From: Verrucomicrobiota bacterium
Lineage (GTDB): Bacteria; Verrucomicrobiota; Verrucomicrobiia; Limisphaerales; JADLHS01
Reading direction: 5' to 3'
Assembly (NCBI GenBank): GCA_049840435.1
Contig: JASGKY010000044.1
Location: 131,664-195,663, forward strand
DNA length: 64,000 bases
Shown: piece after piece, positions 11,822-59,141 of the stretch
Layout of the letters: each line of letters starts with the position of its first letter
How positions within the stretch are numbered: position 1 is the first letter of the stretch
The notes under the pieces: model-generated
What the model saw: the letters and a program-made list of their open reading frames with translations, nothing else
Database searches by the model: none
Told to the model about the DNA's origin: nothing
Translations under genes and position numbers: made by a program

Positions 11822-13156
11822 GTGAGAAGTGGATCTCCATTGGGTGTGGCGGCAGGGATTATCTCAGCCTTATTCTTTATTTTCACCCCCCGGCTCCACG
11901 CAGAGGAGACCAATCTCTTAGAATCTTTAAATCTGTCGCTTCCACGGTTTTGGAACGCCATGGAATCCCGTCCAGGTCCCGTTTCGGTGGTTGCCTTTGG
12001 GGACAGCCTACAGGTACCGCATCGATCATTGTGCCAGTACCTATTCGCCTCATTGGTTTCCAAGGCCGGGCAGGCGGGACACTCGTTTTCTTGGCCGCCT
12101 TCAATTTCGAATCCGGATCTGGCTGGTGGAGCGTTTTGGACTCCATTCGCGGCTGTGGATGATTACTGGTGGATGCAGTATCTGATGATGCCCCCGCCGG
12201 CTATTGTGGCTTGGCGTAATCAAAGTCAGGTCAGTGGAGCGACATTATGCGATTTGATCGGGCTCTACTACTGCGTCGGGCCAGAGGGGGGGCAAATGCA
12301 GGTTGATGTTGCCACGAATGGCGGGGCTTGGTTGCCATTGGAGCTTTTAGATACTTATCGCGAAACAATTGAGACGCGATACGCTCGGTGGCAGTTGCCA
12401 CTCGGATATTACCAGATGCGGGTGCGGTCATTGACCGGAATCACGAATCGGGTGTTGGGGCCGGAAATGCTGAACTCGCATAGTAACGGTATCAGCACAG
12501 CCTATCTCTGGAACGACGGCGCGAATTTGAAAAGTATTCTCTCTTTTTCACCCCAAATCTTAGGCCCAGTGTTTTCGAACATTCACCCTGATCTTATAGT
12601 TTGGCACATGAAGGAACTGGCTAACCTAGGGGAAGTTACCCTGAGTAACGAACTGGAACGGCTAGAGGGATTCTGGAAGACAGTCGCGCCGGATGCTGAG
12701 GTGGTCTATATCGGGACGCCCTATGAGGCTATCGATTCCACCAATGTTCATACCGTAATACAGAACCGGTTGGTCCGGGATCTGGCCCTGCGTACGGGGC
12801 GTTGTTACGTGGATTGCATGACGCCGTTTGGTAGCTTTGCGCAGATGGTGACGAATGGCTACTTAGACGACGTAGTTCATATTAGTAATCCCGGTTACGC
12901 ATTCATGAACACCTTGGTTTGGGATCAACTGTGTTTTGAGGCGCTTCGTCAGGACCGGCGGCTAATGGCTCGAGGCACGTTGGCAGCACCGGTGCTTTCA
13001 TTTCAAAGTTTCACCAATATTGAGCATGTACTTCAAACATCTTCGAATCTCTCGGATTGGAGTATTGTGACCAGTTTGCAAGGTGATGGAACGCGAAAGG
13101 CAGTCACCAATCCGCCGGCTCATTCCCCAGTTTTTTATCGAATGCTGCTACGGTAG
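11822..13156 (+). CDS. Secreted SGNH/GDSL-hydrolase-like protein with C-terminal 'SSNLxxW..FYR' domain
   Basis: Signal peptide; VAFGDSL (block I); DDVVH (block V); tail LQTSSNLSDW...VFYRMLLR. Confidence 0.8.
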   Translation: MRSGSPLGVAAGIISALFFIFTPRLHAEETNLLESLNLSLPRFWNAMESRPGPVSVVAFGDSLQVPHRSLCQYLFASLVSKAGQAGHSFSWPPSISNPDLAGGAFWTPFAAVDDYWWMQYLMMPPPAIVAWRNQSQVSGATLCDLIGLYYCVGPEGGQMQVDVATNGGAWLPLELLDTYRETIETRYARWQLPLGYYQMRVRSLTGITNRVLGPEMLNSHSNGISTAYLWNDGANLKSILSFSPQILGPVFSNIHPDLIVWHMKELANLGEVTLSNELERLEGFWKTVAPDAEVVYIGTPYEAIDSTNVHTVIQNRLVRDLALRTGRCYVDCMTPFGSFAQMVTNGYLDDVVHISNPGYAFMNTLVWDQLCFEALRQDRRLMARGTLAAPVLSFQSFTNIEHVLQTSSNLSDWSIVTSLQGDGTRKAVTNPPAHSPVFYRMLLR

Positions 13157-13259
13157 GCAATTGCACCGCGTCGCCCATTTTATGATTCGTTTCGGTCTAC
13201 ATCACAGCTATTCCGCCAACATGGCTTCTGGTGTGTCTCGCGGGTGGCCCATTGACCCA

Positions 13260-16200
13260 ATGGCCCTTCTCTGGAACTTCTGGCTGGAGTGTCGTTGGCG
13301 ATACGACCGGAAAGCGCGGCGGCTTGTCTTGCTGGCGATATGGCTGGGCGGACTAATTGCAGCGGTATGCTTTTCATCGAGTGCGGTGGCGGCTGCTAGC
13401 GTCGAGCGTTACAGCTTTCAGGAGGACTTCTCCTTTACGGAGAATACGGCGAAGTCTATTTGGTCTTATCGGTTTCAGGCCAACGGCGTACCCGACAACA
13501 CTGCGCGTGATGGGCAATACGAATTGATGCTGGATCCGGTGGATAGCCCGACTAGCTACAGTCCGAACTCCAAGACTGGATGGTGTGATAGCGCAGGTTT
13601 CAACGGCACAGTCGAGATGCCGCAGGTGATTAAAAACGTCGCTACCTATGTCAATGACGGTATTCCTCCCAAAGAAGTAGTCGTTCACCCAGACAGAAAT
13701 CAAATCGTGGTGGTTAGTTGGCTAGCTCCGAGATCTGGGACCATCAAGGTCAGTTTTGAGTTCACAGATTTGGTGGTGTACAGAATCGCCGGATTACGAT
13801 GATGGAGTGACGTGGTTTGTGGACGTTGGTGATGCCACCGGGAACTTGGCGTCCGGACTTCTACAGCCGGGAGCTTCGACAGGCAGCCTCACCCGCACGA
13901 ACATTTCTGTTGTGGCCGGCGACCGGGTGCATTTTATCGTGGGGCGAAGCGGAAACTCTTTGGAGAAGAGCTGGTTTGACACGACCGATCTGAAGGCTGT
14001 GATTGAATATACTGATACGCCAGCGGCTATTGTTGCTACTCCGTCGGCGGCTTTCCCCCTGACCTACAATTCCAGTACGAACGAATGGACGTGTGTCTAT
14101 CAAGCAAATGGTTCGCCGAATAATCTGGCGCGGGACGGCAATTATGAACTGCTATCGCAACGAACCACTTCGTTTTTTGGGCTGACCAATGTGGTGGGTT
14201 GGACGGATTCGGGTGGCTTGCCGGCGGTCATGATTAACACCAACTATACCGTGACGATTGGGGCATCCGGGCTCAAGCTGGAAGCTTTCGAACTATTGTT
14301 GCACCCAGCTCCGAACCAGTTAGTCGGAATACAGTGGCTGGCCCCCCAGTCTGGGCGGGTGTCTATTCAATTTCAGTTTGATGATTTGGACTGGGGTGGC
14401 GGAGATGGTGTTGATTGGTATCTTCAACAACCCCGCCTTGGGCAGGAGCTGGCTCGAGGCTCAGTTCATTTGAGCAGCTCTGGCCGGCGTCCTACCACCA
14501 TCGATGTCATTGCAGGAGAAAAGTTGTGTTTTTTGGTCAGTCCGAAGGGAGCGGATCACACCTATGATTCCACCAAGTTGTGGGCTCATATCCAGTATCA
14601 AGAGCCGTTGACCGTAGCGCTGGCAGTTTCTAATGAAACGGTGCAGGTAGCGCGAGTGACTTGGGGGTTTCCGGGCGATCAACAGTTGTTCCGGTCTGGT
14701 GACGTCAATGGACCTTGGTACACCATTGCAGACACAAAAATCGGTTTGAGCGGAACGATGGCCCTCAATTACTGCTTTGAGGAATTGCCGTGTGGCCGGG
14801 GGGCTTTCTTCAAACTCAATTATGCTGGTACCGAGCGCCCAAAGCTATCCATGGATGGCACTTTGTTTAGCGCAAATTTTCTCGAGGGGATTCCGCCGAA
14901 TTTTCTCAATGTTCAGGTGGGCGACGTCACTTTTGCCGAATGGAAGACGAACGCGCTCTTAACCACCAGCTCGACCCCATTGGATACGAACCGGACAGCG
15001 GTGGTGTATGTATGGAACGATCCGTCTGGTCTAGAGATTTCATGTGAGGCTCTGTGTTACGCCGACTTTCCAGCAGTGGAGTGGTTGATGTGGGTTAAGA
15101 ACAACGGCGTCAGCAATTCACCTCCGTGAAGAATCTGTGTCCCCTCGACGCTATCTTCGTAGGTGCGCCCGATAGCACTCTCAGCCTCCACAGTTCGGTC
15201 GGAGGGCAACAGTCCCGAGAAGCTTTCCGTCCGGAAACAGAAGTTATAAGTGAAGGCACCAAAAAACGCTTCGGAACACCCGTGGTCGATCCAGTGAGCA
15301 GGTCTTGCCTTTTTTTGATCTTGAATCCGGACAATCCGGCGTGGTTTTCGCCATCGGTTGGTCTGGGCAATGGCAAGCCGAACTCAATGGAATCTTGTCA
15401 CGAGAGGTGCGTGTGCAGGCGCGACAGGAATCACTTAATGTGAGGCTGCGACCAGGTGAACAGATTCGCAGTCCGAACATGCTGCTGTTGACATATACGG
15501 ACGGGCGCACTGCGGGGCTTAATACATTTCGTCGCTTCATGAGCCGCCACGTGTATCCACAGAATACCAACGCGCAAATTCCGGGCCTTCAGATGAATTC
15601 TTGGTATGTGTATGGCGACAACGGCTACCCTCCCATCAACGAAACCAACTTGGTGCACTTGCTGGAGGCGTATCGGGCGCTGGACATTGATACCGTTGTG
15701 ATTGATGCCTGTTGGAACGGCGAATCTTGGTGGGGAGATGCGGGCAATTGGACACCAGCCACCAACCGCTTTCCCAGAGGGCTAGCGCCGGTGGGACAAG
15801 CTGCCACCAATCTGGCGATGCGGCTTGGGCTTTGGTTTGAATTAGAGAAGGCCGCCACGGGGACGGCCGCGCTTCGGGAACGCCCAGAACTCTTTTTGTC
15901 CGCACTGGGCTTCAACTGGGCGCTGCTTAACTTGGGAAAGCCTGCCGCACGCGAGTGGTATGTCACCAACCTGAACTATTACCTGACCAATACTCCGCTC
16001 GGTTATTTCAAGCATGATTACAACGTAAATCCCAAGCTCTTCTGGCGCGCTCAAGATCGCGAAGATGGGGTGGGGCTCACAGAAAACCTCTATATTCAAG
16101 GCCTGTATTCAACATTGGATCAAGTTCGAGCCTTGCATCCGGAGGTGGTTTTTGAAGGTTGTTCCAGCGGTGGGCTGCGGATGGATTGGGAAATGTTGCG

Positions 16201-16764
16201 CCGAGTCGATTGCTACTTTAAGAGCGATCTGTGGTTTGATCCGTTGGGTCACCAATGCCACATCATGGGGACAGCGCATATCTCTCAGCCAACTGCCTGC
16301 TAACTCCCTTTAAAAGTCTCGACCCAGATCCGTATGCTTTTCGCAGTCAGCTTGGAGCGGCTATGTCATGTGGTTGGGACCCCGACAGTGTAGACTATGA
16401 CCCCGTGCTGGTGGCGGATCGGGTGCGGGAATACAAATCTCTGCGTCATCTCTTTCAGGGAGATTTCTATCCGTTGTTCCCTCATTCAACCAGCGAGACT
16501 GTGTGGGCGGGCTGGCAGTTCCATCGAGGTGACTTGGGCGAAGGCATGGCCGTGGTCTTCCGTCGGTCTTCCGCGGCTAGCAGCATCACTGCCATAACTC
16601 TCAACGGGCTGAAGGCGGGGGCGAACTATGAATTTGTATGGGTAGACGAGGGTGTGACCAATCAGCTTAGTGGCGTCAGTTTGAGCCAGCCCCTGACGGT
16701 GACGCTCACCAACCGACCGGGCTGCAGCGCTGCTGTTGTATCACGAAGTGGGGCCTTGACCTGA
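13260..16764 (+). CDS. Large secreted multidomain GH36 alpha-galactosidase, broken by about 4-5 frameshifts
   Basis: Consecutive overlapping ORFs 13083-13802, 13756-15129, 15126-15443, 15305-16303, 16255-16764. GH36 motifs VIDACW, GLWFELE, YFKHDYN, FEGCSSGGLRMD, GDFYPL. Signal peptide plus two N-terminal beta-sandwich repeats. Confidence 0.8.
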
Positions 16765-17705
16765 TTTGGCCGCTGCGGGCCGACTTCGACCGCGTGTGAG
16801 TACAGCGAGGGCGCGGTGAAACATGCGAGCGAACCGGGCGGGATTGCATTGGGTGAGGTCGAGCGCGATCAGTCGGACGAAGAGTGCCGGTCGCACCCAG
16901 ATCAGGCAGTCCAGCGCCCCTGGAATAGTCCGGTAATGTCCGCGTAGGCAAGCGCGTTTCTCGGCCCGGCTCAGAATGGGTGACGCTAGCACCGCCTCAG
17001 GTAGATGTACGCAACCCACTTCGATTCGCTGGTCTGCCCAACTGATGTCGGGGCCGGCGTTGATTTTTCGGCTGGGTAGCACGCATCCAGGAAGGTCCGC
17101 CACAGCCGCCATCAGCAGGCTTGTGAACCAGAACAGGGATGAAAACGTCTGCTTGGACAGCTGGGGTTGCAGCCGATCTGTGCGAATCACATTCGAGCTG
17201 ATCAGCGTGAACCAGCGGAAGTAGTCCCCGAATACGTTGCGGCTGCGTTCGGCAAAAACCGGCGCGCTTGGGCAGCGTGACAATGTGGGACCATCGGGAT
17301 TGGTGAACTGATGCGGGAGATGAATCCAAGCCAGCTCGGGATGGCTGTCCAGACAAGCCAGGATTTCTCTCAGCAGTTCAGGCTCGAACAGGTCGTCGTC
17401 GCTGAAAAGCCACAGATATTTTCCCGGGCTTGCCCATACAGCCAAGCGAGGTGCAGGCTCATGCCATAATTGATCGGCTGATGAATGATGCGCAGGCGAG
17501 GTTGACTAGGGAGCGCATTTAGAAAGTCACGAGTGCTGTCCGTAGAGCCGTTGTTGGAAATGATGAGTTCAACGCGCGGAGTGGCTGCTACCAGCGGCAC
17601 TAACATCGCCAACAACTGGCGCAAATACTTTTCGCGATTCCAAGTGGGCACGAGAATGCTCAGAAGCGGTCGCTCGGAAGCATCTTGGTCTTGTTGGTTA
17701 AGCAT
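16741..17705 (-). CDS. Glycosyltransferase family 2, frameshifted near 17440
   Basis: LLSILVPTWNR..ISNNGSTD in ORF 17370-17762 continues as GKYLWLFSDDD in ORF 16741-17445. Confidence 0.85.
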
Positions 17706-17710
17706 GAAAG

Positions 17711-19128
17711 TCAGTGAGACGGGTTCGTCATTTTGGGTTGTAGGAGGGAACGCATATCCCAAAAACGCTGCCAGTATGTGTGCCGGTCAGTGCCCAAGCT
17801 GCGCAACCCTCGCCACACTACCCACCAGTTGTTAAAACTTAACTGAACCAAGCCTTGCGCCGCAAGCATGCCCCAAAAGCCAAAACTAGGAGTTAATACG
17901 AGGCTGAGTGCCACCACCGCCCCGCCGGAAATTAGTGCCGGCCCAAGGAAGGGATTTAAATTTTCGGTCAGCACCAGGGCGGCAAAGTGGCCGTGATGCT
18001 GTTCGGCGAGATAAATCGCGAGCAGCAGCAGGAGCGCCCCGGTCGGTAGCAGGCTGGTTTGGGAGCCGATCCCACGTGAGCAAAGTAGGCCCCAAGAAGA
18101 TCAACCCAATCGCACCCGCAACGAAGGTAGCGAGATAGAAACGAACCCGGTCCGCAAACAAAACGGCCACGGCTGTTGTATCGCCGCGCGCCCGAAGGAC
18201 ATTGATCAAAGGCAGTTTGACCTGAACCCAAACGCCACTGAACTGCGTCAGTATCAAAACAACGTTGAGGCTCAGAGTGTAACTTCCCAACTGCCCAAGA
18301 TCGAGCAGGGCGCTTCCAATCAATGTGTTGGCTTGCAGAATCAGGTAGGCGCCGAGGCTGACGGCTCCCAGTCGCCAAGAATTGGGCCATAGCACTTTGA
18401 TCAAGTCCCAGCGTATCTGCCCTTGCTCCAAAACGGCCTGGCTCAAAAAGCGCCGAAAAAGAACACACGTTGACACCCGCATAATTGTGCCCGATACCAG
18501 TGCCCCAGCGACCAACGACCAAATGCCACCGCCAAGAATTAGTCCGGTGATACCAATCACATAATTGGCGGCTTGGCCGACTAAGATGGCTTGTTGCGCT
18601 TGGCGCACGCGATTGATGCCATTGAGGAGCGCCATCCAATAGCCACCCCAAAAAGTGACTAACAAGCCAATGGCATATACTGCCCAAGCCGCGCGTAAGG
18701 AGGTTGAATTTGCTAGGTGGGCCGACTTGTGAGCAATCCACCATTCGCCCGCCGTCAATCCCAAGCCAAATGCCCCCAGTCCGACCCAGCGATAATACTG
18801 TCGCATGGTGGCCACCAAATCTGCCAATAGCGGGTAGTTAGGCTGTGCTTGAACGGTAGGATCAGACTTGGCCACTCCAAAAGGAAGTAACTTGGCCGCT
18901 CCCGCCCACGCAAAACCGGCGGCGCGCGTGACGTTTTGGGCAAACCCAAGATCAAGCTGATAAAACAGATTGGTCAGTGCCAAAAAAACCCCCCACAAAC
19001 CAAGCTCCTCCGCAGGTAGTTTCCGGCTGATAAGCAGGAACAACCCAATGCTGCCCAAAAGCCGGGTGCCCATGGAGACAAAACTCCACATTTCGGGGCT
19101 GTGCCAAAAGGGACCGAATAGATCGCAT
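17711..19128 (-). CDS. Wzx-like O-unit flippase (MATE-like), frameshifted
   Basis: Many TMs, 'LPAEELGLW..F', 'QLDLGF'. C-terminus in ORF 17711-17974 (ENLNPF..). Probable start MRSIRSL at 19128 with a homopolymer indel. Confidence 0.8.
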
Positions 19129-19145
19129 GGAAACAGGCGAGAAAA

Positions 19146-20009
19146 TTATGCGGCGCTGGGCGGACCATTCTTTGGAGTGGTCACCGCGGGCACATAACGC
19201 ATGATTTCGTTGGCGCGATACGGCACAGCCCCAGGAATCAGCCGCCCTTTTGCGTTCCAAACCCGCCACCAATGTTCAGCGAAATCGCGAAGACTCTGCG
19301 CCTGACCGCAGGCCAAATTCTCAATTAACGGGTTACCTGGTTGCACATCCGTTCGCGTTACCGCGGCAACAAACGCCGCGGCGACTTGTTCCACCGGAGT
19401 GAAGACGCGCACCTGTTCACCCAAAGTCATCGGGAAATCTTCTCCGGCCAAGGCGGCCTTGCGCAAGGCAGGCCAGAAGCGTGGGATCGCCTCGCCTTCG
19501 CCGTAAACGTGAAACGGGCGCAACAGAACCAGTTCGAGTCCGCGATCCACGGCCAAACCTAAGGCAGCCATCGTCGCGGCCGCCTTGGAAGCGTGATAAG
19601 GACCGGTTGGCAACAGCGGGGCGTCGGCTGGAATAAACTCCAGTTGTGCTGCCGTGCTGCCATACTCAAAACAGGAGCCGGTGATGATAAAACGTTTTAC
19701 CCCAGCATTTGCTGCTTGCAGCCACAAGTTCAGACTCTGCTCAACATTGACCTGGAAAAGTTTTTCCCATTCCAAGTTTTGCATGCTGACTCCTGCGGCG
19801 GCGAGGTGGATCAGGACATCGCAACCTTTCAGGGCAGCACGCCAATCGTCTGATAATGCGCCATCCACCCAAGCAGGTTGAGTCGGCAGGGGGATTTTCG
19901 GTCGATCACTCGAATAGCGTAGCGCTGTAACGATATGTCCTGCAGCCAGTGCTTGTTTGACGACATGGCTGCCAATAAAGCCAGAACCGCCGGTGATGAA
20001 AATCTTCAT
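19146..20009 (-). CDS. NAD-dependent epimerase/dehydratase (4-ketoreductase-like SDR)
   Basis: MKIFITGGSGFIG, GSCFEYG, YHASK. Confidence 0.9.
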   Translation of the reverse strand: MKIFITGGSGFIGSHVVKQALAAGHIVTALRYSSDRPKIPLPTQPAWVDGALSDDWRAALKGCDVLIHLAAAGVSMQNLEWEKLFQVNVEQSLNLWLQAANAGVKRFIITGSCFEYGSTAAQLEFIPADAPLLPTGPYHASKAAATMAALGLAVDRGLELVLLRPFHVYGEGEAIPRFWPALRKAALAGEDFPMTLGEQVRVFTPVEQVAAAFVAAVTRTDVQPGNPLIENLACGQAQSLRDFAEHWWRVWNAKGRLIPGAVPYRANEIMRYVPAVTTPKNGPPSAA

Positions 20010-20289
20010 ATTTGGGTTTGGACTAAGTGGTCGTGGCTTTAGAGTGTGGGACAACCTTGGGGAGTAAGCTGAAGTTTTGACTCATTTTACCGGAGTAGAG
20101 ACAGGGTCAGTTTTGTGGCAGATGTGATGACATATTGTGGGGTAGCAACGAATAAGCGAGGATGAACGCCAACTCGTATCATGATGCGATACACATCGAT
20201 CAAGTTGCCAATCATCCAAAATACCACTGAATTATGTTTGCTTATTTGGATGAATGCTAGAGGGCTTAGGTGTAACATTGGAGAGGACA

Positions 20290-22012: not shown

Positions 22013-22134
22013 TATTCAAACACACTTCATTAATCTTAAGAAATGAAATGCGCGGCTGTCGAGTACCGCAACCCAGGTTGTGAAGAATTTTTTGCAAATT
22101 TAGCAGGTCATTCACGATTGGATTTTAGTTTGCG

Positions 22135-23554: not shown

Positions 23555-23625
23555 TTTGTCCGCCTAGTATGCGTTCCGGCAAAACCCGTCTCAAGGTGTT
23601 TTAATCTGGAGTTCTTCCCAGCCTT

Positions 23626-26576: not shown

Positions 26577-26748
26577 CGTCAACGAACGTAGGAGTCGTGG
26601 CATCCAGAGTCAATCCGGGCCGCCAAATTGCTCCAAGCCCACTTACCGAAAGACCGCGACGGGGCAAGGTCCTGCGTGGTCGGCACATCTGTATTCAACC
26701 CCGCGCTAGGTAAACAAACGAAAGGCGGGGGAACTCGTAACCTGAAGC

Positions 26749-29041
26749 TCACGGCCATCTCAGCCGGTGGAAGCAGGCGGGGGCATTCGTGCTTATTTCT
26801 ATCCAGCAGTCAATCGTCCCGCCCGGACCGGCCACGAGGTTGGTGTGGCTCACCCAGTTCACCAAGTTGGTCGAAGTCTGGAGTGTGTAGGTCAACCCAG
26901 CAGTGCCGGAGGCGTGCAGCCGGAACTGACCGGGCGCAGCCACCGAGTAGCTGGTGAACACCGGGGGCGGGGGCAGAAATACCGTCACAACCCGATTGGC
27001 CTGGACCGTATTGCCGCTGGCATCGGTCACGTTGTAAATGTTCGTGTAGCTCCCAGTCACGCTGAAGTTCACGGTATTCGTAATCACAATCGTGCCGGTC
27101 AGATCGCCCGCACACAGGTCGGTGGCGGTCGCACCGGGATCGGTGAAGGGAGCGCCCACTGCGTGTAGGAGGGGATTGTCTCCGAGCAGAGCCAGGACCG
27201 GCGGCTGCGTATCCACTATTACCACCGTTCGGGCGGTGGTGACCACTGCACCGAGGGCATTGGTGGCGTTGTAGGCCAGATTGTAAACACCCGGCGCGTT
27301 CGGGTTTACTGCGCCGCTCACCGACAGGGCAAGATTCAACAGGTAAACATCGGTGGGAATCGTGGCCTGGCCGTAGTTATTGAATCCCCAGCCGATGGCC
27401 GTTCCGTCGCCTTTGAGCGCCAAGCTCTGGAAATTGCCCGCTGCCAGTGCCACCACGTTGGTCGCACTGACTGGAATCGTGGTCTGGCCATAGCCGTTGT
27501 ATCCCCAGCCGACGACCGTGCCGTCCCATTTGATCGCTAGGCTTTGAAAATTGCCCACTGCCAGCGCCACCACGTTGGTCGCACTGACTGGAATCGTGGT
27601 TTGGCCGAAGTGCGGGAATCCTGAGGTTCCCGGTCCTCCTGCGCCCCAGCCGACGACCGTGCCGTCCCCTCTGAGCGCTAAGCTATGATAATGGCCCGCT
27701 GCCAACGCCACCACGTTGGTCGCACTAGCAGGAATTGTGGCCTGGCCGTAGTTTGGAAAGTCCGATGTTCCCAATCCGCCCGCGCCCCAGCCAACGACAG
27801 TGCCGTCGCCTTTGAGCGCCAAACTGTGTAAAGCGCCCGCTGTCAGCGCCACCACGTTGGTCACACTGGTGGGAATCGTGGTCTGGCCGTAGTCATTGTT
27901 TCCCCAGCCGACGACCGTGCCGTCAGCTTTGAGTGCCAGGCTGTGATAACGGCACGCTGCCAGCGCCACTAAGTTGGTCGCACTGGCGGGAATCGTGATT
28001 TCTCCGTAGTCGTCGTTTCTTCCCCAGCCAACGACTGTGCCGTCAGCTTTGAGCGCTAGGCTGTAAAATTCACCTGCCGCCAGCGCCACCACGTTGGTCG
28101 CATTGGCAGGAATGCTGGTCTGGCCCTCGTCGTTCCTTCCCCAGCCGAAAATCGTGCCGTCTGCTTTGAGCGCCAAGCTGTAAAGACCGCCCGCCGCAAG
28201 CCCGACTGGCGAGGCGCTCAACTTCGCACCCGGATCCATAAAGGCCACGTGACATTCGTTAGTCAGCGGACTGGGACCATTAAGCGCAATCAATGGCGAC
28301 CAGTTGGATGGTAGACGCCACGGGCGATTCAGCAATACACCATTGAGGTGATTGGTGGTGGCGTCGTAGGCAGCAATGCCCGCTGCCTCGTCAAACCGGT
28401 AGCAGGCCACCAGGCCGAGTGCGGTGGCAGTCACGGGCTGGAACATATAGTTGGTGATGTCCGCCCGGCTGCGGGCCACGTTCCACACGCGGACTTCTTC
28501 CAGCATCCCGGCAAAGTGGTTGGAGAGATTCCCGGAGTCGTTATACGCGGCACCGATGGTGAAGGGAGCACCCGAGACGGTCAGATTGATGCCATTGGTC
28601 GTGGTGCCGAGCGGCAGGCCGTTGACGAAGAACTGCGCGTTCGTCGGGGAGAGCACCACGGCGACATGGCACCATTGCCCCGTGGCGCCAGCGAAGGAGA
28701 CGGTCTGGTAACTGGCCCCGTTCCACAACCCCAGCGCGTTAGTGGCGAGGTCAAGGCGGTAGCGGGTCTGCGCGCTGGTTGGCCTACCCGCTGGCCAGCA
28801 GGCAGGCGTGGCCCGCCAGCATTCGGGGATTCATCCACAACTCAATCGTACCGTTCGTCAAATCCAGCGCCGGGACAGGCATCACGGAGACCTGATCATC
28901 CACGCCATCGAACGACAGAGCCATAGCGAAGCCTGTCTGCGCCGATGCGGGCTGGTTGATGAACCAAGTGGTACTAACGACCATTGCGACCCCAAGTAGC
29001 CAACGCCCAAGGGTGCATGAAAACAATCGATTAATTTTCAT
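26749..29041 (-). CDS. Secreted surface protein: LamG-like domain, RCC1 repeats, DUF5011/Ig-like domains and C-terminal 'STNLxxW' domain; frameshift near 28780
   Basis: Signal peptide and ALSFDGVDD in ORF 28784-29041; WCHVAV..F.G.LEEVRVWNVARS; HSLALKxDGTVVGWG repeats; FTDPGATATD; LQTSTNLVNW...FHRLRWP. Confidence 0.85.
27360..28200 (-). repeat. Intragenic RCC1-type tandem repeats (about 7 units of roughly 117-141 bp)
   Basis: Recurrent gccaccacgttggtcgcact / ccccagccgacgaccgtgccgtc segments encoding ATNVVALAAG..HSLALK.DGTVVGWG. Confidence 0.85.
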
Positions 29042-29186
29042 ATCCCAAATCTGATCTGATTCTTCCGATTCTCTGGCAACTTGGCAATTCCCTGCGAATA
29101 GTCAGCTGCTGTTGGGTGTTTTACATGGATATTCAGAGCAGAGCGAGGCGGAAAGACCGTCAAACTTCACGCGGTGTGAATCCTGT

Positions 29187-30092: not shown

Positions 30093-30100
30093 GGGTGAAT

Positions 30101-30117
30101 GATACCTTTAAGGTATC
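30101..30117. promoter_or_regulatory. LysR recognition box (ATAC-N7-GTAT palindrome)
   Basis: GATACC TTTAA GGTATC inverted repeat in the divergent LysR/pirin intergenic region; matches the T-N11-A, BenM/CatM-type ATAC-N7-GTAT box. Confidence 0.8.
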
Positions 30118-30179
30118 GTTTTGCGAGCATCAAAGTATTGGGCGGAATTCATGGCACGGGGTAATCATGTTCTCAAAAT

Positions 30180-30881
30180 ATGATGACCATACGAAAATCC
30201 GATGAACGCGGCCACGCCGATCATGGCTGGCTGGACAGCTTATTCAACGTTTTCCTTTGCCGAGCTATTATGACCCGGCGCACATGGGTTTCCGTCAGCT
30301 TGCGCGTGATCAATGATGACCGCATCGCGCCCGGCGGCGGGCTTCGGTATGCATCCGCATCGCGACATGGAGATCATCAGCTACGTGCTGAAAGGCGCGT
30401 TGGAGCACAAGGATTCCATGGGCAACGGCCGCGTGATCAGCCCCGGTGATTTCCAATACATGGCCGCCGGCACAGGCGTGTTGCACAGCGAATTCAATCC
30501 GTCCGAGAAGGACCGAAACGCATCTGTTGCAGATCTGGATTCGCCCGGACAAAGGCGGCGTGAAGCCGCGTTATGGCGAGAAATTTCGCCAGGCGAAGCC
30601 GGCGGGGCAATTGAACCTCGTCGCGAGCAAGACGGGTCGCGACGAGTCCATCGCGATCAACCAGGACGCCGGACCTGTTCCTTGCCCGGTTGAATGCGGG
30701 CGACACGGTGGAACACGCGTTGCAGCCGAAGCGTCATGCGTGGGTGCATGTGGCCGAGGGCGTGGTGGAGTTGAACGGCACGAAGTTGAACGCGGGCGAT
30801 GCCGCGGCGGTCAGCGAGGAGCAAAAGTTGCAACTCAAGGCCACCGGAAAAGCTCAAGTGCTGCTGTTTGACTTGAACTGA
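30180..30881 (+). CDS. Pirin family protein (YhhW-like), several frameshifts
   Basis: [57 protein letters not shown] spread over 4 overlapping ORFs. Confidence 0.88.
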
Positions 30882-30961
30882 ATCTGCGCTATGGGTGCGT
30901 CCGGTCAGGGCGCACCCGAATCCAAAAATTTAAACAAACTGAAACTTAACTTTCTTGAACT

Positions 30962-31541
30962 ATGAGGTACTGTTTCCATCATCTATCATTCCGGTGGCGG
31001 TCATACCACCAAACTCGCTGAAGCCGTCGCCAAAGGCGCGGCTTCGGTGGCGGACGTCAAGGTCAATACCATCGCCATCGACGGCAAAGACATCGTTGAC
31101 GGTCGTTACAAGAACGACGCGGTGATTGCGCAACTCGACGCGAGCGACGCGATCATTTTCGGCAGCCCGACCTACATGGGTGGGCCGAGCGGGCAATTCA
31201 AGACCTTTGCTGATGCGACCGGCGGAAGCTGGTACGGTCAGAAATGGAAGGACAAAATCGCCGCCGGGTTGACCGTTTCCAACAGTCCCAGCGGTGACAA
31301 GTTCAGCACCCTGCAATACTTCCACACATTGGCCATGCAGCACGGGATGATCTGGGTCGGTTTGGGCGAGTTGCCCTTGCAACCCAATGGAGTGAACCGC
31401 GTCGGCAGCTTCGGGGGCGCGATGGGTCTGGCGGGACAGGAATCACCGGAAGTTGCGCCAAGTGAAGGCGACAAATTGACCGGCGAAATCCTGGGCCGTC
31501 GGGTCGCACAAACTGCGAAGCGCTGGAAAGGCGAGGCTTGA
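30962..31541 (+). CDS. WrbA-like flavodoxin family NAD(P)H:quinone oxidoreductase; frameshift right after the start
   Basis: Removing one G after ATG gives MSTVSIIYHSGGGHT; DAIIFGSPTYMGG, WKDKIAAG, QHGMIWVG. Confidence 0.88.
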
Positions 31542-31542
31542 T

Positions 31543-31788
31543 ATGAAGCGCGGACTCCAAATCATCGCTGCAGTCGTCGCGCTTGGCGTGGTGATCACAT
31601 GGGCCAGCTTCGGCGCAAACCGCGGCTGGACCAAAACCGAGAAGCCCATCAAGGTCTTGGACGAAGTAACCGGCATCGAAGGGATCACTCAAGAGAAAGG
31701 CTTCTGGCCCGGGGTTGATTTCCTTGGCGCAGGATTGTTTGGCGCAGGTCCTCGCTGGCATTTCCTTTTTGTTCCGTTCAGCATCTAA
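31543..31788 (+). CDS. Small membrane hypothetical protein
   Basis: Two hydrophobic segments, 'GANRGWTKT..DEVTGIE..F.PGVDFL'; sits in operon position between WrbA and YceI. Confidence 0.6.
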   Translation: MKRGLQIIAAVVALGVVITWASFGANRGWTKTEKPIKVLDEVTGIEGITQEKGFWPGVDFLGAGLFGAGPRWHFLFVPFSI

Positions 31789-31820
31789 TTCACAACATCA
31801 ACAAAACCAAAAGCACTAAA

Positions 31821-32435
31821 ATGAAAAACAAACTCATCACAACACTCGCAGTTGCGGCATTGACCGGCGTGGCATTCGCTGCTCCGCAATCATTCGACTT
31901 CAAAGATCCCAAAGGCGTGAACACCGTCACGTTCAAACTCGATGCCCCACTCGAAGCCATTGATGGCAGCGCCAACGGCGTCGGCGGTTCAGTGGAATTT
32001 GACGCCGCGAATCCCGCCGCGACTACTGGCAAGATCGCCATTGCTGCTGAATCGTTGACCGTTCCAAACCCCATGATGAAGGAGCACATGCATGGCGGTC
32101 AGTGGCTCGATGTGGCCAAGTTCAAGGAGATCACCTTTGAGGTAAAGTCGCTTAAAAACGTGAAAACCCAAGACAACGCAACTGCGGCAGATGTCACGGG
32201 CAGCTTCACACTTCATGGGGTGACCAAAGAAATCACAGTGCCGGTCAAGATTACGTATCTGAAGGACAAGCTGAGCCAGCGTGTTCCGAATCAGCAAGGT
32301 GATTTGCTGGTCCTCCGCTCGACTTTCACGATCAAGCGCACGGATTATGGTATCAATCCCGGCGCGCCGACTGACAAAGTTACGGACGAAATCGAGTTGA
32401 AACTCAGCATCGCCGGGGCTTCGCCAAAGAAGTAA
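31821..32435 (+). CDS. YceI-family polyisoprenoid-binding periplasmic protein
   Basis: Signal peptide; 'EHMHGGQWLDVAKFKEITF', 'GSFTLHGVTKEI', 'IKRTDYGI'. Confidence 0.92.
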   Translation: MKNKLITTLAVAALTGVAFAAPQSFDFKDPKGVNTVTFKLDAPLEAIDGSANGVGGSVEFDAANPAATTGKIAIAAESLTVPNPMMKEHMHGGQWLDVAKFKEITFEVKSLKNVKTQDNATAADVTGSFTLHGVTKEITVPVKITYLKDKLSQRVPNQQGDLLVLRSTFTIKRTDYGINPGAPTDKVTDEIELKLSIAGASPKK

Positions 32436-32454
32436 TCCAATTTTGTAACCACCC

Positions 32455-32485
32455 CCGCCGCTGGAGCAATCCGGCGGCGGTTTTT
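32455..32485 (+). terminator. Rho-independent terminator after yceI
   Basis: CCGCCGCTGGA-GCAA-TCCGGCGGCGG followed by TTTTT. Confidence 0.85.
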
Positions 32486-33293
32486 ATTCCGGTGCGCCCA
32501 CCCCGCGAAATTCCCTCAGGTAACGCAGTGCCACGCGGAGGTCTTTGGGCAACGGCGCCGCAATCGTCACCGGTTCATTGGTGGTCGGATGTGGCACGGT
32601 TAATTCCTGTGCGTGTTGGGCGACGCGGGCGAGCAGCGGACGTTCTTCCCGCCCAGGTTTCAAATAAAAGTCTTTTTTCAGCCGCGACAACCACAGCGGT
32701 TTTCCGCCGTAGAGCGTATCGCCGATGAGCGGGAAGCCGGCGTGTTTGAGATGGATGCGAACCTGATGCATCCGGCTGGTGATGGGGCGGCAGGTCAAAG
32801 CGGTGTAACCGGAGAATTTTTCCGCCACATCGAAGAGCGTCTTGGATTTCTTTCCTTCCTTGGGATCAATTCGCATCTGGCCGGGGCGAAACGCATCGGG
32901 TGCAATTTTGGCGATCATTTCAAAATGATCCGAAGAGGGCTCTCCAGCGATTATAGCGAAGTCGGTCTTGGTGGGCTTGTCGGTCCCAAAGGCGTTGGCT
33001 AGGGCTAGGAATGCTGGTTTGTTCTTGGCGAGCAACAGGACGCCGCTGGTCTCAAAATCCAACCGGTGTGCGTTGCTGAGATAAGTGAGGTTGCGCTTGG
33101 TGGCCCAAGGTTTCTGGGCGGCGATGCCGTCGTGCAACAGCCGTATCAAGTTTGGGCGCTCCGCATCGTTACGATCTGGCGAAGTCAGCACCCCGGAAGG
33201 TTTATCGAGGGCGAGCAGATGCTCATCCTCGAACAGGACGGGGATTTCCCAGAATTCCTTCGTGGCCGGGGCCAAGAGTTTGATGACATCCAT
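32484..33293 (-). CDS. RluA-family RNA pseudouridine synthase
   Basis: LDKPSG, HRLDFETSG, MHQVRIHL..G.PLIGD.LYG. Confidence 0.93.
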   Translation of the reverse strand: MDVIKLLAPATKEFWEIPVLFEDEHLLALDKPSGVLTSPDRNDAERPNLIRLLHDGIAAQKPWATKRNLTYLSNAHRLDFETSGVLLLAKNKPAFLALANAFGTDKPTKTDFAIIAGEPSSDHFEMIAKIAPDAFRPGQMRIDPKEGKKSKTLFDVAEKFSGYTALTCRPITSRMHQVRIHLKHAGFPLIGDTLYGGKPLWLSRLKKDFYLKPGREERPLLARVAQHAQELTVPHPTTNEPVTIAAPLPKDLRVALRYLREFRGVGAPE

Positions 33294-33335
33294 AAACCAA
33301 CGGTTGCCCGCCGACCTGATCCGGATGCAGGCGGG

Positions 33336-35010
33336 TTACTGGCCCGCCGTGCCTTGTTGCATCTGCGCCTGTTTTTGTTGGAAATAGGGCAGCGTGCGGA
33401 AGGCTTGCTCGGCTTCGCGCTGAAACCAGGCATTGAAGGCTTCGCTCCGGCGCACTTGATGGACGCTGCGGGTGAACGCGGGCAGGTTTTCGCGTAGCTT
33501 GGTTTCATCAATCGGCAGTTTGGTCCGAACGTAAACCACCGCAGCACCGTCGTTGCTCGGTAACACTTGGCCGACTTGGCCGGGGGTGGTTTCAAACGCT
33601 ACACGTTTGAGATAGGAGAGTTCGAGTTGATACTGTACCTTCCGGTACATTGGTGCTGCTCAAAGAAAACGGCGACAGTGTCACAGGAGTGACTCCAAGC
33701 GGTTTGCACAGATCAGAAAAATTCTTGCCCGCGGCGAGACCGTTGGTGGCAATAGCGTGGAAATCCATGGCCAGCTTCTGGGCTTTCGTGGCTGCTTCGA
33801 TAAAACGATAATCAGACGTTACCTTTTCGCGGATTGATTCAAAGTCCGGCTGCTGGCTGGGCAGACGCTTGTTGAAGGCGACCACATAGACCGTGTGTTC
33901 CCCGACCAGCACATCGTCCAGCGGGTCTTCTGCGGTGAGATTGTAGGCCCGACGGACGAAATCGCCGCCGACATCCAGTGCAGCCGGGGCTTCGTTGCGG
34001 GAGAAGGGCGCGGTGACTTCAGGTTTCAACTGGGCCTGGGTGGCCAGCATGGTGAAGGCTTCCGAGGTCAGCGGGGCCTTGCTGACGGCTTCATACAACT
34101 GATTGTCAAACTTGCGGGCGGTGGCCCCGGCCAATTGTAACGCGGCGCGACTTAGCAACTCTTCGCGGATCTTGGTCCGGGCGGCTTCCGGCGTGGCGCC
34201 AAACTGGGTGAAGTTGGTTCCCAATTCGAGCATGTTGTTTTCCAGCATCTCGTTCAAATTGGTGAATTCCGAGGTGGCTTGGGCGAGATAATTGGAGACG
34301 GGAAACCGCACGAAGCTGAGTTGCAACCGTTCTGGAAGGCGATAGCGCGCCTGCTGGTTGGTGTAAAACTCAGCGATTTTGGCCGGGGTCACTTCGATGG
34401 AAGCCAGATTGTTGGAGGCGTGGAAGAAAGCCACCTGAGCGGCGACTTCCTGATGATCCCGCCGATACAACGCCTCGATTTCCTGCGGTGGAACCAATTG
34501 GCCGCTCACGCCAATCGTGGAGATGAGCTGCTGGATGGCGATATCGTTCCGAACAAAACGTTCGAAGTCACCCAAGGTCAGGTGTTCGCGCGCCAGAATT
34601 TGTTTTTCAAACTCCGCCAAGGGTACCGGGTTGCCGCGGTTGATCATGCGCAACCGCTCACTGGCGGCTCGGGCGGCTACGTCGTCGCTGATATGGATAC
34701 CCATTTCCGCGGCTTTCTGCATGATCAGAAGGCGATTGTAGGTTTCCCGTTCGATGTCGAAGTTGGGGATGGTGCGACCGCTGCCCGGGAACCGCGCCAG
34801 CGGCAAAGAAGTGATAGATTTGCACTTCGCGGCGTGCCTCATCATACAGGGAGGGGGTGATGACTTGACCATTCATCGTGCCATAATTGCTGGCTACCCG
34901 GCTGCCATCCATCTTTGATGTGCTAAAACCCACCAGACGAAGGTGATGATAACCGCCACGATGATGACCCACCACATGGTTTGCGAATGCTTCCGAATCG
35001 TTCCAATCAT
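33336..35010 (-). CDS. PpiD-like periplasmic chaperone (SurA N-terminal domain), frameshifted
   Basis: Start MIGTIRKHSQTMWWVIIVAVIITFVW; YGTMNGQVIT; LLIMQKAAEMGIHISDD; split over ORFs 33592-34872 and 33336-33650. Confidence 0.78.
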
Positions 35011-35143
35011 AAAAAATTTGGCTTAAACAAGGGCGCAAACGCTAACCGGCTTTGCCTGACCCGGTCAAACGCAAAAAACGGTCGTGTGCGTCGACTGCCA
35101 GCTTCGGATTGACTTCCCGGCGCGGCTGCCAAATCTTCGCCCG

Positions 35144-35632
35144 GTGTCAGAATTGCTTTGGTTTGTGGCGCATACCAAGCCACGACGGGAAAAGAAACTT
35201 TTAGAGTTTTGCGAGCGGCAAGCCATCGCCGTAACCCTTCCGTGCTACGCGTCTTCACACAAATACCGCGGCAAATCCGTTGTGTTCCAGAAGCCGTTGT
35301 TTCCGGGCTACCTCTTTTTGCAGCTTCGTCTAGGGGAGATTGCCACCGTCCGCCAGAATGATCACGTTGCCAACCTGCTCGAAGTATTCGATCAAGCTAC
35401 CTTTGCCCGGCAGCTCTTCGAAATTCTTCGCGCGCTCGAGTCCGGGTTGGAAGTTCGGCTGGCTCCGACCATCGAATCCGGAACGCAAGTACGCATCCGA
35501 TCCGGTCCATTGCAAGGCGTTGAAGGCTTGGTCGAGTATCGTCAGGGCCACACCACTGTCATTCTCCGGCTTGATTTCATCAATCAGGCGGCAGCTGTCC
35601 GCATGTCAGTGGAGGAACTCGAAGTCATTTGA
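35144..35632 (+). CDS. NusG-paralog transcription antiterminator (RfaH/UpxY/LoaP-like)
   Basis: WFVAHTKPRREKK, PLFPGYLF (NGN domain); GTQVRIRSGPLQGVEG (KOW). GTG start at 35144. Confidence 0.9.
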   Translation: MSELLWFVAHTKPRREKKLLEFCERQAIAVTLPCYASSHKYRGKSVVFQKPLFPGYLFLQLRLGEIATVRQNDHVANLLEVFDQATFARQLFEILRALESGLEVRLAPTIESGTQVRIRSGPLQGVEGLVEYRQGHTTVILRLDFINQAAAVRMSVEELEVI

Positions 35633-35714
35633 GTAAGGCAGGAATTTTTTTGACGTTTTTTTTCACGCCCGCTTGAAGTTTTTGGCGCGGCAGGCTTTAA
35701 CTTCAGAATTTCGC

Positions 35715-35743
35715 TTGGCAATTCGCGCGCCGGGAATTACAAC
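35715..35743 (+). promoter_or_regulatory. Putative sigma70 promoter for the riboswitch leader
   Basis: TTGGCA-17 nt-TACAAC about 45 nt upstream of the riboswitch P1. Confidence 0.45.
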
Positions 35744-35786
35744 CGTGGCGCTCTTTGAAAGATACGGGCCGCAAGCCCGTCAGTGT

Positions 35787-35991
35787 TGTCATCAAATGCA
35801 GGGAACGCCGTGAGATTCGGCGACGGTTGCGCCACTGTATCGGATTACGAACTCCCAGAAGCCACTGCGGGTCACGCAAGTGCGGGCCGCGGGAAGGCGG
35901 GAGTGAGGTTTGAAGTCCGGAGTCAGGATATCGGTTTGATGGCACTCGTCCGCTCGCTCCAATTGGAGCGGGCACTTCTCCGCAAAGAGAA
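35787..35991 (+). ncRNA. Cobalamin (B12) riboswitch
   Basis: AGGGAA..GTGAGATTC..CGGTTGCGCCACTGTA; AGCCACTG..GGGAAGGC; B12 box GAGTCAGGA; closing stem TGTCATCAAA (35787-96)/TTTGATGGCA (35935-44); L5 TTGCG complementary to CGCAA in hairpin TTCTC-CGCAAA-GAGAA (35976-91); BtuF-like gene downstream. Confidence 0.93.
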
Positions 35992-36034
35992 GGATGAGGC
36001 CAGCCCATCACGCTGTTTGTGGTGGGACTCGTTT

Positions 36035-36078
36035 ATGCCTTCATTTTCGTTTTGCGGAAGATGAAGGCGTTTTTGTTT
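36035..36078 (+). terminator. Riboswitch expression-platform intrinsic terminator
   Basis: ATGCCTTCATTTTCG-loop-CGGAAGATGAAGGCGT followed by TTTTGTTT, between the aptamer and the first CDS. Confidence 0.8.
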
Positions 36079-36227
36079 AAAGCCGAGGTGACAAGGTCGA
36101 GGGCCGTAAGGGCTCGACTTCGCACTTTGCCCCTCACATTTCGTCGTTTTTCTTCCGCGCTGGTCTCTCTGAAACCAAAACCCATTCCGGCCGCCATCCG
36201 CGTCCGGAACTCAGCAGAAAGATCAGT

Positions 36228-36911
36228 ATGAAAAAGCTCCGTTCGTTTCGTTCGTTATCGCTGGCCGTCGCCAGCGGGTTCGTCATTTTCTCCGCCTCCG
36301 CCGCCACGTTTGATGACGTGCAATACTGGGTCGGCTCCGGTGCCAACAAAGCGGCCTTCGTCATTGATTGGAATGATGGCAAATCCGCCGAATCGCTCCT
36401 GTGGGGCTATCGTTGGGATGGAGCCGCGACTGGGTTGGATATGTTCCAAGCTGTGGTTAATGCTGATTCACGCCTGTATGCACATGTCGGCAGTTACGCG
36501 TGGGGCACAGCGATTCTTGGCATCGGCTTCGACCTGAACGGCAACGGTAACTTTGGTGTGACGCCAGCACTGAGTTTCAACAGCGGCGGATTGTTCAGTT
36601 CCACCAGTCCGAACGATGCGCGTGTCTCGGTGGAAGCCGGCGATCACTATGTTGAAGGCTGGAACACTGGCTACTGGGAATATTTCAACAAATCTAGCGC
36701 TGTGGACGCTTGGGCTTCGGCAAGCGGGGGTATCACTGACCGAGTGCTTACCGATGGCGCATGGGACGGATTGAACTTCAACCTCGGGTTCGCTTGGCCT
36801 GGGGCTACCCCCAGCGAACCGATCGCAGTCACAGCTGTGCCTGAACCCAGCGCGCTCGCGCTGATTTCCCTTTCCGCACTTGTGCTGACATGCGCCCGTC
36901 GCAAACCATAA
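36228..36911 (+). CDS. PEP-CTERM surface protein, putative cobalamin-binding
   Basis: Signal peptide; C-terminal [24 protein letters not shown]; first gene under the B12 riboswitch; YW.Y...G....L.DG segment recalls DUF4430/transcobalamin-like domains (from memory). Confidence 0.85.
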   Translation: MKKLRSFRSLSLAVASGFVIFSASAATFDDVQYWVGSGANKAAFVIDWNDGKSAESLLWGYRWDGAATGLDMFQAVVNADSRLYAHVGSYAWGTAILGIGFDLNGNGNFGVTPALSFNSGGLFSSTSPNDARVSVEAGDHYVEGWNTGYWEYFNKSSAVDAWASASGGITDRVLTDGAWDGLNFNLGFAWPGATPSEPIAVTAVPEPSALALISLSALVLTCARRKP

Positions 36912-38368
36912 TTTGCGCCCTGGGACTGGTCGGCGTGCTTAACGCGTCGGCCAGTCCGTTCGCCACGGAAGTCGTGCGTGCGTCCGGCACGTTCGGTCCG
37001 GTCCCGTACCATGATCCCAACTCGGTGCTTCGGGCGCCGGCAACGTCGTTCCGCGATTTCTTCGGCGTCACTGCCCGCGTGAAGTTGGTGGAAGCGGCCT
37101 ACTACTTGGCGTCGACCAATACGGGGTTGCTCACGACCAATCTCATTCTCACGGTGGGAGCGGGGGATGAAATCATTGTGCGCTTTGATTCGCCGATTCA
37201 GGATGATCCGGCCCATCCATATGGCGTGGACTTGCTCGTGTTTGGTAATGCCTTCTTCACCCCAAACCAGTTCGTCAACGACAACACCGACATGGGAGCG
37301 TGTGTTCTCAACGGCCCAATTTTCTCCGAGCCGTTGAAAGTTTCCGTCAGCCCCGGATTCACCGGTCAGCTCGGCGAAATCGCCAATGATCCCGACACGT
37401 GGCCATGGTATCGCTACGACAACGGTCCGTTTGCGGACAGCGCATTTCCCACGCAAGCTTATCAATGGAATCGTGCGACGACGAATTGGTCGAGTCAGCT
37501 CATGGATTTCACCAAGCCGGTGAATCCTGCCCTGCAATCCCTCTTTACCGCTGGCGGCCTCACGGCGGCGGACGGTATTGATTTGTACGCTGGCGCGGGC
37601 GGTGGCACGGGATTCGATCTGCGCGAATCCGGCTTTGCGTGGATTCAATACGTCAAAGTTGAAGGCGTTGATCCGGATTTCAGCGATGGCGAGGTGGATG
37701 CTTTCGCTGCCGTGCGTTCGATGCACATCGGTGACACGCTATCCATCGCGCCGGAAAACCTTGCGCGCAACACCGCCGTCTTGTTTTTCCAGAACCCTAG
37801 TGCGGAAACTGAAACCACCGTTTCGCTCGCATTCGCTGCGGTCAGTGGCCTAGCGCAAGTTTTCACCGCGCCGCTGACGAACTGGAGCAGCTTCGCCGCA
37901 TTGCCGGGGACGGTGCGTACGGCGGTGCAATTGAATTTCACCCCGCTGCTCGGCACCACGCCAGTTACGTTTACCGCTGACCTTGCGTTGTCCGCAGGCA
38001 CAAATTATTTCGGCAATGGGAGCGACCTGCTGGTACTCCAATCCAGCGGCACGAACTGGACCGCGCGGCCGTTCACTTATCACAGCACTAATCAACAGGT
38101 GCGGGTCGCGGGACTCACCAATTTTTCTGCGTTCGTGGTTGCGCAGTTTACTGCCCCAACTTTGCAACTGGCGGCCAACGGGGCAGATTACAACATCCGC
38201 TTTACGCCGGTGGCGAGTCTGACGCACACGCTGGAACGTTCCACCAACCTGATGCATTGGTCGGCGCTGGGTTCCTTTATTGCGAGTAACGCGTTGCCCG
38301 TCGTTCTCACGGATGACGCCGCGCCGACTACCAAAGCTTTTTACCGTGTAAGGCTTGATCAACCATGA
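36890..38368 (+). CDS. Secreted protein with BtuH-like domain and C-terminal 'STNLxxW..FYR' domain
   Basis: Signal peptide; LTVG...IIVRFD.PI.D...DLLVFGNAF...SEP..VSVS...GFDL...YVKV resembles Bacteroidetes B12-locus surface proteins (from memory); tail [10 protein letters not shown]...AFYRVR. Confidence 0.7.
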
Positions 38369-39192: not shown

Positions 39193-39568
39193 TTCCAGCA
39201 TAGATGCGGCGCAGTGTCCGCTGTGTGGCCGGGCTAACGAGTGTCAGCTCTGCTCCGTGGCGGCTTACAAAGGTCCGTGCTGGTGCATGAAAGTGACAAT
39301 TCCCGAGGCCTTGCTGGCGCGCCTGCCGGCAGAACTGCGGAACAAGTCGTGTATTTGTCGTGCGTGTGTCATGGAATTTCATCGCGCCAAGGAAGGTGAA
39401 GTCGCCGGGTCAAAGATCCGGCCCGGCGACTTTTATTTCGACAACGGCCTGATGGTTTTTACCGCGGAATATCATCGGCGGCGCGGCTACTGTTGCGGCA
39501 ACAACTGCCGCCATTGCCCCTATCAGCCCGACCCGATGAAACTCACGTTTGCTCCGACCGCTGCATGA
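39179..39568 (+). CDS. Cysteine-rich CWC domain fused to a DUF5522-like domain
   Basis: [11 protein letters not shown]....GPCWC...SCICRAC followed by [35 protein letters not shown] at 39179 overlaps the pilin-like gene end. Confidence 0.82.
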
Positions 39569-59123: not shown

Positions 59124-59141
59124 ATCGTCTGAGGGGTAAGG

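Follow-up and report, generated by a model that had tools for sequence, protein, structure and literature searches.

The type A C-terminal domain (CTD) of type IX secretion systems (T9SS; PF18962, Por_Secre_tail) is a small beta-sandwich that ends many unrelated signal-peptide proteins and has undergone lineage-wide expansion. In the PEP-CTERM/exosortase system (PF07589, TIGR02595, and PF09721) the tail likewise stands at the C terminus, and in type I dockerins (PF00404) the terminal domain is a docking module that folds as EF-hand helices. Immunoglobulin-like (Ig) and fibronectin type III (FN3 or Fn3) domains are a further point of comparison, as they carry information for type II secretion systems (T2SS) according to the available part of one report (PMC7949064), and the available part of another describes the Ig fold of V. 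cholerae VesB as a graftable T2SS signal and the Fn3 domain of Dickeya PelI as binding OutC (PMC12369372). In the same portions of the two reports, the domains of VesB, PelI, and Pectobacterium Pel3 are substrate specific, with the PDZ domain of GspC recognizing the signal of VesB (PMC12369372, PMC7949064). Here we describe a C-terminal domain, called the tail, that ends three proteins encoded in a 64,000-nucleotide stretch of a Verrucomicrobiota bacterium genome (contig JASGKY010000044.1 of assembly GCA_049840435.1, positions 131,664 to 195,663), referred to below as the window. The tail shares terminal placement on diverse signal-peptide proteins, a predicted small beta-sandwich fold, and lineage-wide expansion with the T9SS CTD, position and passengers with PEP-CTERM and dockerin, and a predicted FN3/Ig-type fold with the T2SS determinants. 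It is a real, very large, and uncatalogued targeting-type tail that lies outside the T9SS and PEP-CTERM families.

A six-frame scan of the window found the motif given in the preliminary description, L[QE]xS[ST]NLxxW followed 20 to 30 residues later by F[YH]R, exactly three times, each time 41 to 45 residues ahead of a stop codon. The first tail (12950..13156, + strand; found by motif scan and by hidden Markov model [HMM], residues 391 to 441, 29 bits) ends an SGNH-type exported protein of 444 amino acids (11822..13156, +). The second (26749..26976, − strand; residues 585 to 659, 58 bits) ends a protein with LamG, RCC1, and two Ig (PF16403) domains (26749..28728, −), and the third (38144..38368, + strand; HMM residues 419 to 489, 48 bits) ends an exported protein of 492 amino acids (36890..38368, +) whose passenger of about 260 amino acids has no family match in Pfam or NCBIfam. 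The three passengers are unrelated (best BLAST E values of 0.027, 0.9, and none), whereas the three tails align pairwise at E values of 6e-4 to 1e-5 and all score, at 29 to 58 bits, on one HMM derived from the source genome. The tail was kept in 16 of the 16 homologue rows listed for the SGNH-type protein, one of which is the window protein itself, and across 32 orthologues of the third copy the Y and R of the FYR motif were invariant and the L-E-R, W, and F positions were at least 90% conserved. We conclude that a C-terminal domain is shared by three unrelated proteins, as first proposed.

Other early assignments for these proteins held in part. The SGNH label is supported only by way of homologues, as PF13472 was detected on 2 of 16, one being named from Limisphaera ngatamarikiensis. 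Homologues with names put the source genome in Verrucomicrobiota and probably in Limisphaerales. Signal peptides had been ascribed to all three proteins, but that of the LamG/RCC1 protein lies in a separate upstream open reading frame (ORF) of 85 amino acids (28784..29041, −), which holds the signal peptide and the start of LamG one frame off. The LamG/RCC1 ORF has thus lost its N terminus to a frameshift, and because one base is absent at 28785-28787 in two related contigs (about 88% alike), the frameshift probably reflects an indel, either of the assembly or of the strain.

To follow the tail beyond the window, the three copies were iterated across the 50,350 stop-to-stop ORFs of the source genome (G000, 83% complete and in a frameshift-rich assembly; contigs of this genome are given C numbers below), which yielded about 200 proteins. 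A core HMM was then made from 160 terminal copies, which favors terminal matches; it detected 215 domains of about 75 amino acids in 208 ORFs at an E value of <1e-3, and reversed decoys gave no match at an E value of <0.1. Within 10 amino acids of the stop codon lay 188 of the 215 domains, and the remaining 27 were labeled heuristically as 7 N-terminal, 11 internal-only, 5 internal in tail-ended proteins, 3 close to the C terminus, and 1 as FN3. Among the source genome tails, W was conserved in 93% and the R of the final [FY][YF]R in 88%, and the FYR motif was 3 to 6 residues from the C-terminal end in 148 of 160. Proline was the last residue of 109 of 188 tails versus 7.6% of other genes. No membrane helix was found within the last 60 amino acids of any of the 188 tails; unlike PEP-CTERM, the tail is a soluble folded domain that has neither a membrane helix nor a basic tail. 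We conclude that the genome-wide C-terminal bias is strong, but that the tail is not strictly terminal.

With a profile built from 43 tails, 39 of the 40 order genomes and 81 of 200 phylum genomes were positive; the phylum survey scored no more than 28 candidates in each genome and may overlook divergent variants. The same profile matched 87,518 public clusters at an E value of ≤0.001, part of which are FN3 cross-matches; among the best 150 clusters, a sample biased to repeats, 122 were tail-ended, some had 8 to 10 copies, and others were FN3 cross-matches. When the 43 tails were tested against Pfam and NCBIfam, no model matched, and none matched PF18962 or the NCBIfam T9SS sorting-domain models even at an E value of ≤1. 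All 30 neighbors returned by an ESM Atlas feature search were unnamed clusters without a Pfam family, and the three clusters displayed were mostly from Verrucomicrobiota where the phylum was known. No description of the domain was found in the literature searched, with subscription papers and supplements outside the search, nor in the accessible portions of PMC3482391 and PMC9957290. No sequencing run contained the strain of the window, the best share being 0.15.

Side observations bear on the extent of the family. Proteins at C24:338142-333361, C25:165016-160022, and C11:35083-39264 end in a divergent variant, F[LC]R[LV]RA, which escapes the HMM or receives a weak score, and the tail counts are therefore lower bounds. 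At the small end of the size range, a 142-amino-acid protein (L046:223-651, on C47) consists of a signal peptide, a glycine-rich IDW-T-DGGGG module of about 60 amino acids, and the tail. Its homologues of comparable length number 6,013, and the tail was kept in 115 of the best 120. Large T/N/S-rich proteins at C57:50327-43047 and C13:148748-154327 lack the tail and have a different shared-looking C terminus (..G.[VI]LQ......G.....G......), possibly a second tail family.

The fold of the tail was predicted with AlphaFold2, which modeled the second window copy as a six-strand beta-sandwich with a pLDDT of 94. The best structural matches (VIA) were an Ig domain of SiiE (Z score of 7.7, root mean square deviation of 2.2, 66 residues aligned) and FN3 domains at Z scores of 6 to 7; none reached a Z score of 8, so that each match is middling by itself. 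The matches to FN3 chains ended at residue 74 to 77 of 90 to 97. Likewise, hhalign aligned the tail to bacterial FN3 repeats over strands A to F with a probability of 96.4 and an E value of 1e-9 and stopped at the strand F motif, at template column 82 of 106; the FN3 set had been selected with the tail HMM, and the structural matches are independent of that choice. Copies arranged in tandem lay 70 to 89 amino acids apart in 200 of 256 intervals, which leaves no room for a strand G. Because the FN3 matches and the hhalign alignment stop at strand F and the tandem spacing is short, the tail is best read as an FN3 derivative that lacks strand G, and the model predicts an FN3-type sandwich of six strands ending before the G strand. 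Its open edge may accept a strand from a partner. The tail thus differs from FN3 repeats, with which it is homologous over strands A to F, in stopping after strand F, in having a conserved W and F-Y-R that are its own, and in being mostly single and terminal. No T9SS CTD was among the top 50 fold matches listed, which does not exclude one. A match to a glucanase/chitosanase domain in the PDB sequences (E value of 9e-6), covering profile positions 12 to 65 without the FYR strand, was taken as partial, and a single-sequence model of a five-copy array (pLDDT of 56) was not used.

Descent from FN3 stalk repeats raises the idea that the tail is a structural end cap or spacer that stabilizes stalks or resists proteases and has no targeting role, and the terminal proline could indeed hinder carboxypeptidases. 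We consider this highly improbable, as the tail also sits on enzymes and on tiny single-domain passengers such as the 142-amino-acid protein and its homologues. Moreover, the tail occupies exactly the place where other phyla put sorting tails, and an end cap would leave unexplained the tail swapping described next.

To compare the tail with the C termini of related proteins, relatives of the 36890..38368 passenger were surveyed at the best 80 of the 248 loci that encode them. Every one of the 31 closed Verrucomicrobiota genes had the tail at its end, and so did 3 records under other labels. PEP-CTERM-type tails were recognized by pattern at 26 of the 80 loci (Desulfobacterota, Armatimonadota, Myxococcota, Omnitrophota, and Planctomycetota), with PF07589 on five of seven relatives tested, and dockerin-like tails were seen by eye at 10 of the 80. 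Dockerin_1 was found on 7 of 10 genes tested from Phycisphaerae, Planctomycetota, and Chloroflexota, 3 of them above the cutoff. The dockerin therefore takes the same place on the same passenger, although its fold is unrelated to the all-beta tail. Within the source genome, at least six adjoining pairs of paralogues, 29 to 56% identical, have PEP-CTERM on one member and the tail on the other, among them C61:15315/16090 (45%), C8:144415/145243 (39%), C61:52881/52042 (52%), and C20:239613/238889 (56%). PEP-CTERM runs in parallel with the tail in this genome, which has 48 PEP-CTERM genes by pattern as well as exosortase matches, and none of the 48 carried both tails on one protein. Autotransporter-repeat (PF12951) genes gave 33 distinct ends, 3 of which ran off contigs; the 30 readable ends comprised 25 tails, 1 weak tail, 2 barrels, 1 PEP-CTERM, and 1 with none of these. 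In one genus (g6) barrels occurred in 16 of 16 genomes and the tail in none, and some genomes of family f37 have both. Tail exchange among homologues is the kind of evidence that was used for GlyGly-CTERM, as far as the available part of that report goes (PMC3237569). Because the tail is placed where relatives in other bacteria carry known surface anchors or export modules, it probably serves as a label directing proteins to the cell surface. We conclude that a lineage-specific targeting tag parallel to PEP-CTERM, as the preliminary description proposed, is well supported.

A surface label need not direct export. The tail could instead be a noncovalent surface-docking module like dockerin or SLH, such that general secretion exports the cargo and the tail holds it on a scaffold, polysaccharide, or partner, possibly by way of a donor strand at the open edge. 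This alternative is a serious if tentative one: the tail swaps with dockerin and PEP-CTERM, both of which are anchors, its tandem arrays with intervals of 70 to 89 amino acids and its 7 N-terminal and 11 internal-only copies in the source genome suit a binding module, and no machine was found to be strictly necessary. Against it, the tail replaces the barrel on 25 of the 30 readable PF12951 genes, whose products need outer-membrane passage. It is also present in a single copy on nearly all proteins of the source genome (208 ORFs for the 215 domains) and keeps a tight distance from the C terminus, and no scaffold or receptor gene was found to recur next to tail genes.

Strong terminal bias, a small beta-sandwich fold, and cargoes that number in the hundreds, are diverse, and in many cases are very large would also fit a T9SS-style C-terminal signal that is recognized and cleaved by a dedicated, unrecognized outer-membrane translocon other than a secretin. 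The source genome, at 83% completeness, gave no match to SprA, PorV, PorU, PorP, or PF18962, with a positive control for PorV only, and PorP was not found in five genomes. Nor did a giant barrel candidate stand out by eye among the large tail-less or predicted-barrel ORFs, and the tail exists in N-terminal, internal, and tandem copies. A dedicated translocon of this sort is in our view quite unlikely, and because N-terminal, internal, and tandem copies are kept, sortase-type cleavage of the tail is improbable as well. The T9SS analogy of the preliminary description thus survives as one of role only: these searches, with their one positive control, found no T9SS component, the predicted fold is FN3 derived, and the tail is not strictly C-terminal. 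A crude outer-membrane-barrel filter passed only 11 ORFs of the source genome, though frameshifts may hide some, hinting at few TonB-dependent receptors.

Secretins were the one general route found. The source genome has five secretin matches: a complete T2SS on C58, another T2SS-like set on C20 with C28, PilMNOPQ-type loci on C36 and on C14, and one further secretin on C59. GspG (PF08334) was present in all 81 tail-positive genomes of the phylum, and the 29 genomes without GspG all lacked the tail. Among the 40 genomes of the order, 24 had both canonical GspG and a C14-type secretin, 7 had GspG only, 7 had the C14-type secretin only, and 2 had neither; the last two, G207 and G229, have 0 and 2 tails, respectively. 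This either-or pattern, spotted post hoc in two small genomes, is no more than a hint. In genome G238 a C14-type operon runs directly into two tail genes. Of the 200 phylum genomes, only 3 gave clear orthologues for the C14-type PilM query. The gene in the GspC position of the C58 operon had no Pfam match, PDZ included, and its product as a query found nothing outside the source genome and was uninformative. CsgG gave one strong match in the source genome, weak matches in G238 and G234, and none in G207 and G229.

The secretin of the C58 T2SS is split into two ORFs, one for the N0-N domains and one for the barrel (L050:12253-13518 and 13346-14758), each with a signal-peptide-like start, and the split is likely natural because secretin ORFs of about 380 to 430 amino acids recur in many genomes of the order. 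In several genomes of the order, secretin domains lie within giant open frames of 3,900 to 4,260 amino acids (G233:C5, G201:C16, G222:C8, G206:C162, G230:C147, and G231:C3).

We favor the reading that the tail is a portable folded label for secretin-based secretion, by a machine of the type II/type IV filament family, to the surface or the medium, and assign it a probability of roughly 45%. An export label is favored because the tail replaces the barrel on most autotransporter-type passengers and because Ig and Fn3 precedents exist elsewhere, and a secretin route is favored because secretin systems are the only general route found. The proteins would be exported by Sec by way of an N-terminal signal peptide, which appears by eye in intact genes although its measurement is unreliable. 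A component of the secretion machine would then bind the folded tail at the near-invariant W, the F-Y-R, and the open edge at the FN3 strand G site, and the cargo would leave through the secretin. The same passengers would be tethered to the membrane in their PEP-CTERM form, as in the paralogues, and would export themselves when they end in an autotransporter barrel. Where the T2SS determinants of VesB, PelI, and Pel3 are substrate specific, the tail is one family, predicted to lack strand G, on about 190 cargoes. A bolder form of the same idea, which is rather doubtful, is an unrecognized export program on the scale of T9SS in Verrucomicrobiota, in which one component common to interchangeable secretin machines would capture, by donor-strand addition, the G-strand-less FN3 tail carried in a single genome by as many as several hundred enzymes and adhesins.

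A number of observations weigh against secretin-based export. Tandem arrays of up to 8 to 10 copies resemble a binding module, and dockerin, with which the tail is swapped, is a docking module. Tail ORFs reach 2,765 amino acids in the source genome and 6,497 in G060, large for T2SS, and the PEP-CTERM paralogues would get to the surface without the tail. A signal-peptide heuristic scored 86 plus 43 of 188 tail proteins versus 275 plus 73 of 800 and is too noisy for clear enrichment. The cooccurrence of GspG and the tail is weak because 90 of the 119 tail-negative phylum genomes also have GspG and because the genomes are kin. The canonical T2SS of the C58 operon was rejected as the sole route, as seven tail-rich genomes of the order lack canonical GspG (best E value of >1e-10) and have other secretin systems, and the C14-type secretin was rejected as the sole route, as seven other tail-rich genomes of the order lack it. 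The tail-poor genomes G207 and G229 keep the C20 and C36 loci, and G207 keeps the C28 locus too. No single machine tracks the tail, and no one accessory secretin system is required.

The third window tail belongs to a cassette spanning 35777-40347. A cobalamin riboswitch (35777..35953, +; RF00174, 67.3 bits) at its head is followed by a PEP-CTERM protein (36228..36911, +) that has no homology to the adjoining tail protein (BLAST E value of 0.14), the tail protein, a DUF1559-type prepilin (38365..39192, +; PF07596 and PF07963), and a periplasmic binding protein that is likely of the BtuF type (39493..40347, +; PF01497). The label "BtuH-like" given earlier to the tail protein found no database support; it is only the context, with the riboswitch and the downstream PF01497 gene, that agrees with B12 uptake. 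The pair of tail gene and prepilin is conserved across Verrucomicrobiota, and passenger and prepilin are conserved together in Planctomycetota. This pairing suggests a pilin-linked B12 capture module.

Prepilins are frequent neighbors of tail genes. For 24 of 188 tail genes a prepilin began no more than 600 bp downstream, versus 10 of 782 control genes taken from a noisy heuristic (Fisher P value of 5e-11), and a prepilin was downstream of 2 of 48 PEP-CTERM genes. In the survey of the best 80 of 248 loci, a prepilin followed all 34 tail-bearing homologues of the cassette passenger; a pilin also followed the passenger at 15 of 19 Planctomycetota loci, none of them tail-bearing, and the pilins compared look orthologous. 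Pilins of the H-X9-DG type were most abundant in families f17 (27 of 32) and f24 (13 of 17), neither of which yielded a tail. A dedicated partnership of tail and pilin was therefore rejected, as the pilin follows tail-less passengers in Planctomycetota and abounds where the tail was not found. Since the orthologue follows the passenger whatever its tail, we conclude that the pilin tracks the passenger or the cassette and not the tail.

The source genome has 111 prepilin-type ORFs, 72 of them DUF1559-like. Expansions of this kind have been described, in the available parts of the reports, for Verruconatronum, with 67 copies and a suggestion of T2SS export of alginases (PMC13274419), and for Planctopirus, with 68 DUF1559 paralogues (PMC10632474). 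The window also contains a minor-pilin set of three genes (174, 199, and 573 amino acids) at 57402-60262 (−), and similar sets occur in the source genome at C14:46242-48901, C33:18177-21039, and C53:17155-20182.

Verrucomicrobiota are major polysaccharide degraders. The papers found give no account of how these bacteria move their many large extracellular enzymes across the outer membrane. With a single HMM, about 190 proteins of the source genome that are likely secreted or on the surface can now be recognized, along with tens of thousands of public clusters. Because annotation pipelines miss the tail entirely, it needs a family model whichever role it has. As an anchor, the tail would be a new module for surface display. 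As an export label, it would allow experiments on how T2SS chooses its substrates, a question of long standing, and were the donor-strand program to hold, type II-like secretion would have in the tail its first portable address label that is family-wide, one that takes the place of autotransporter barrels and PEP-CTERM anchors.

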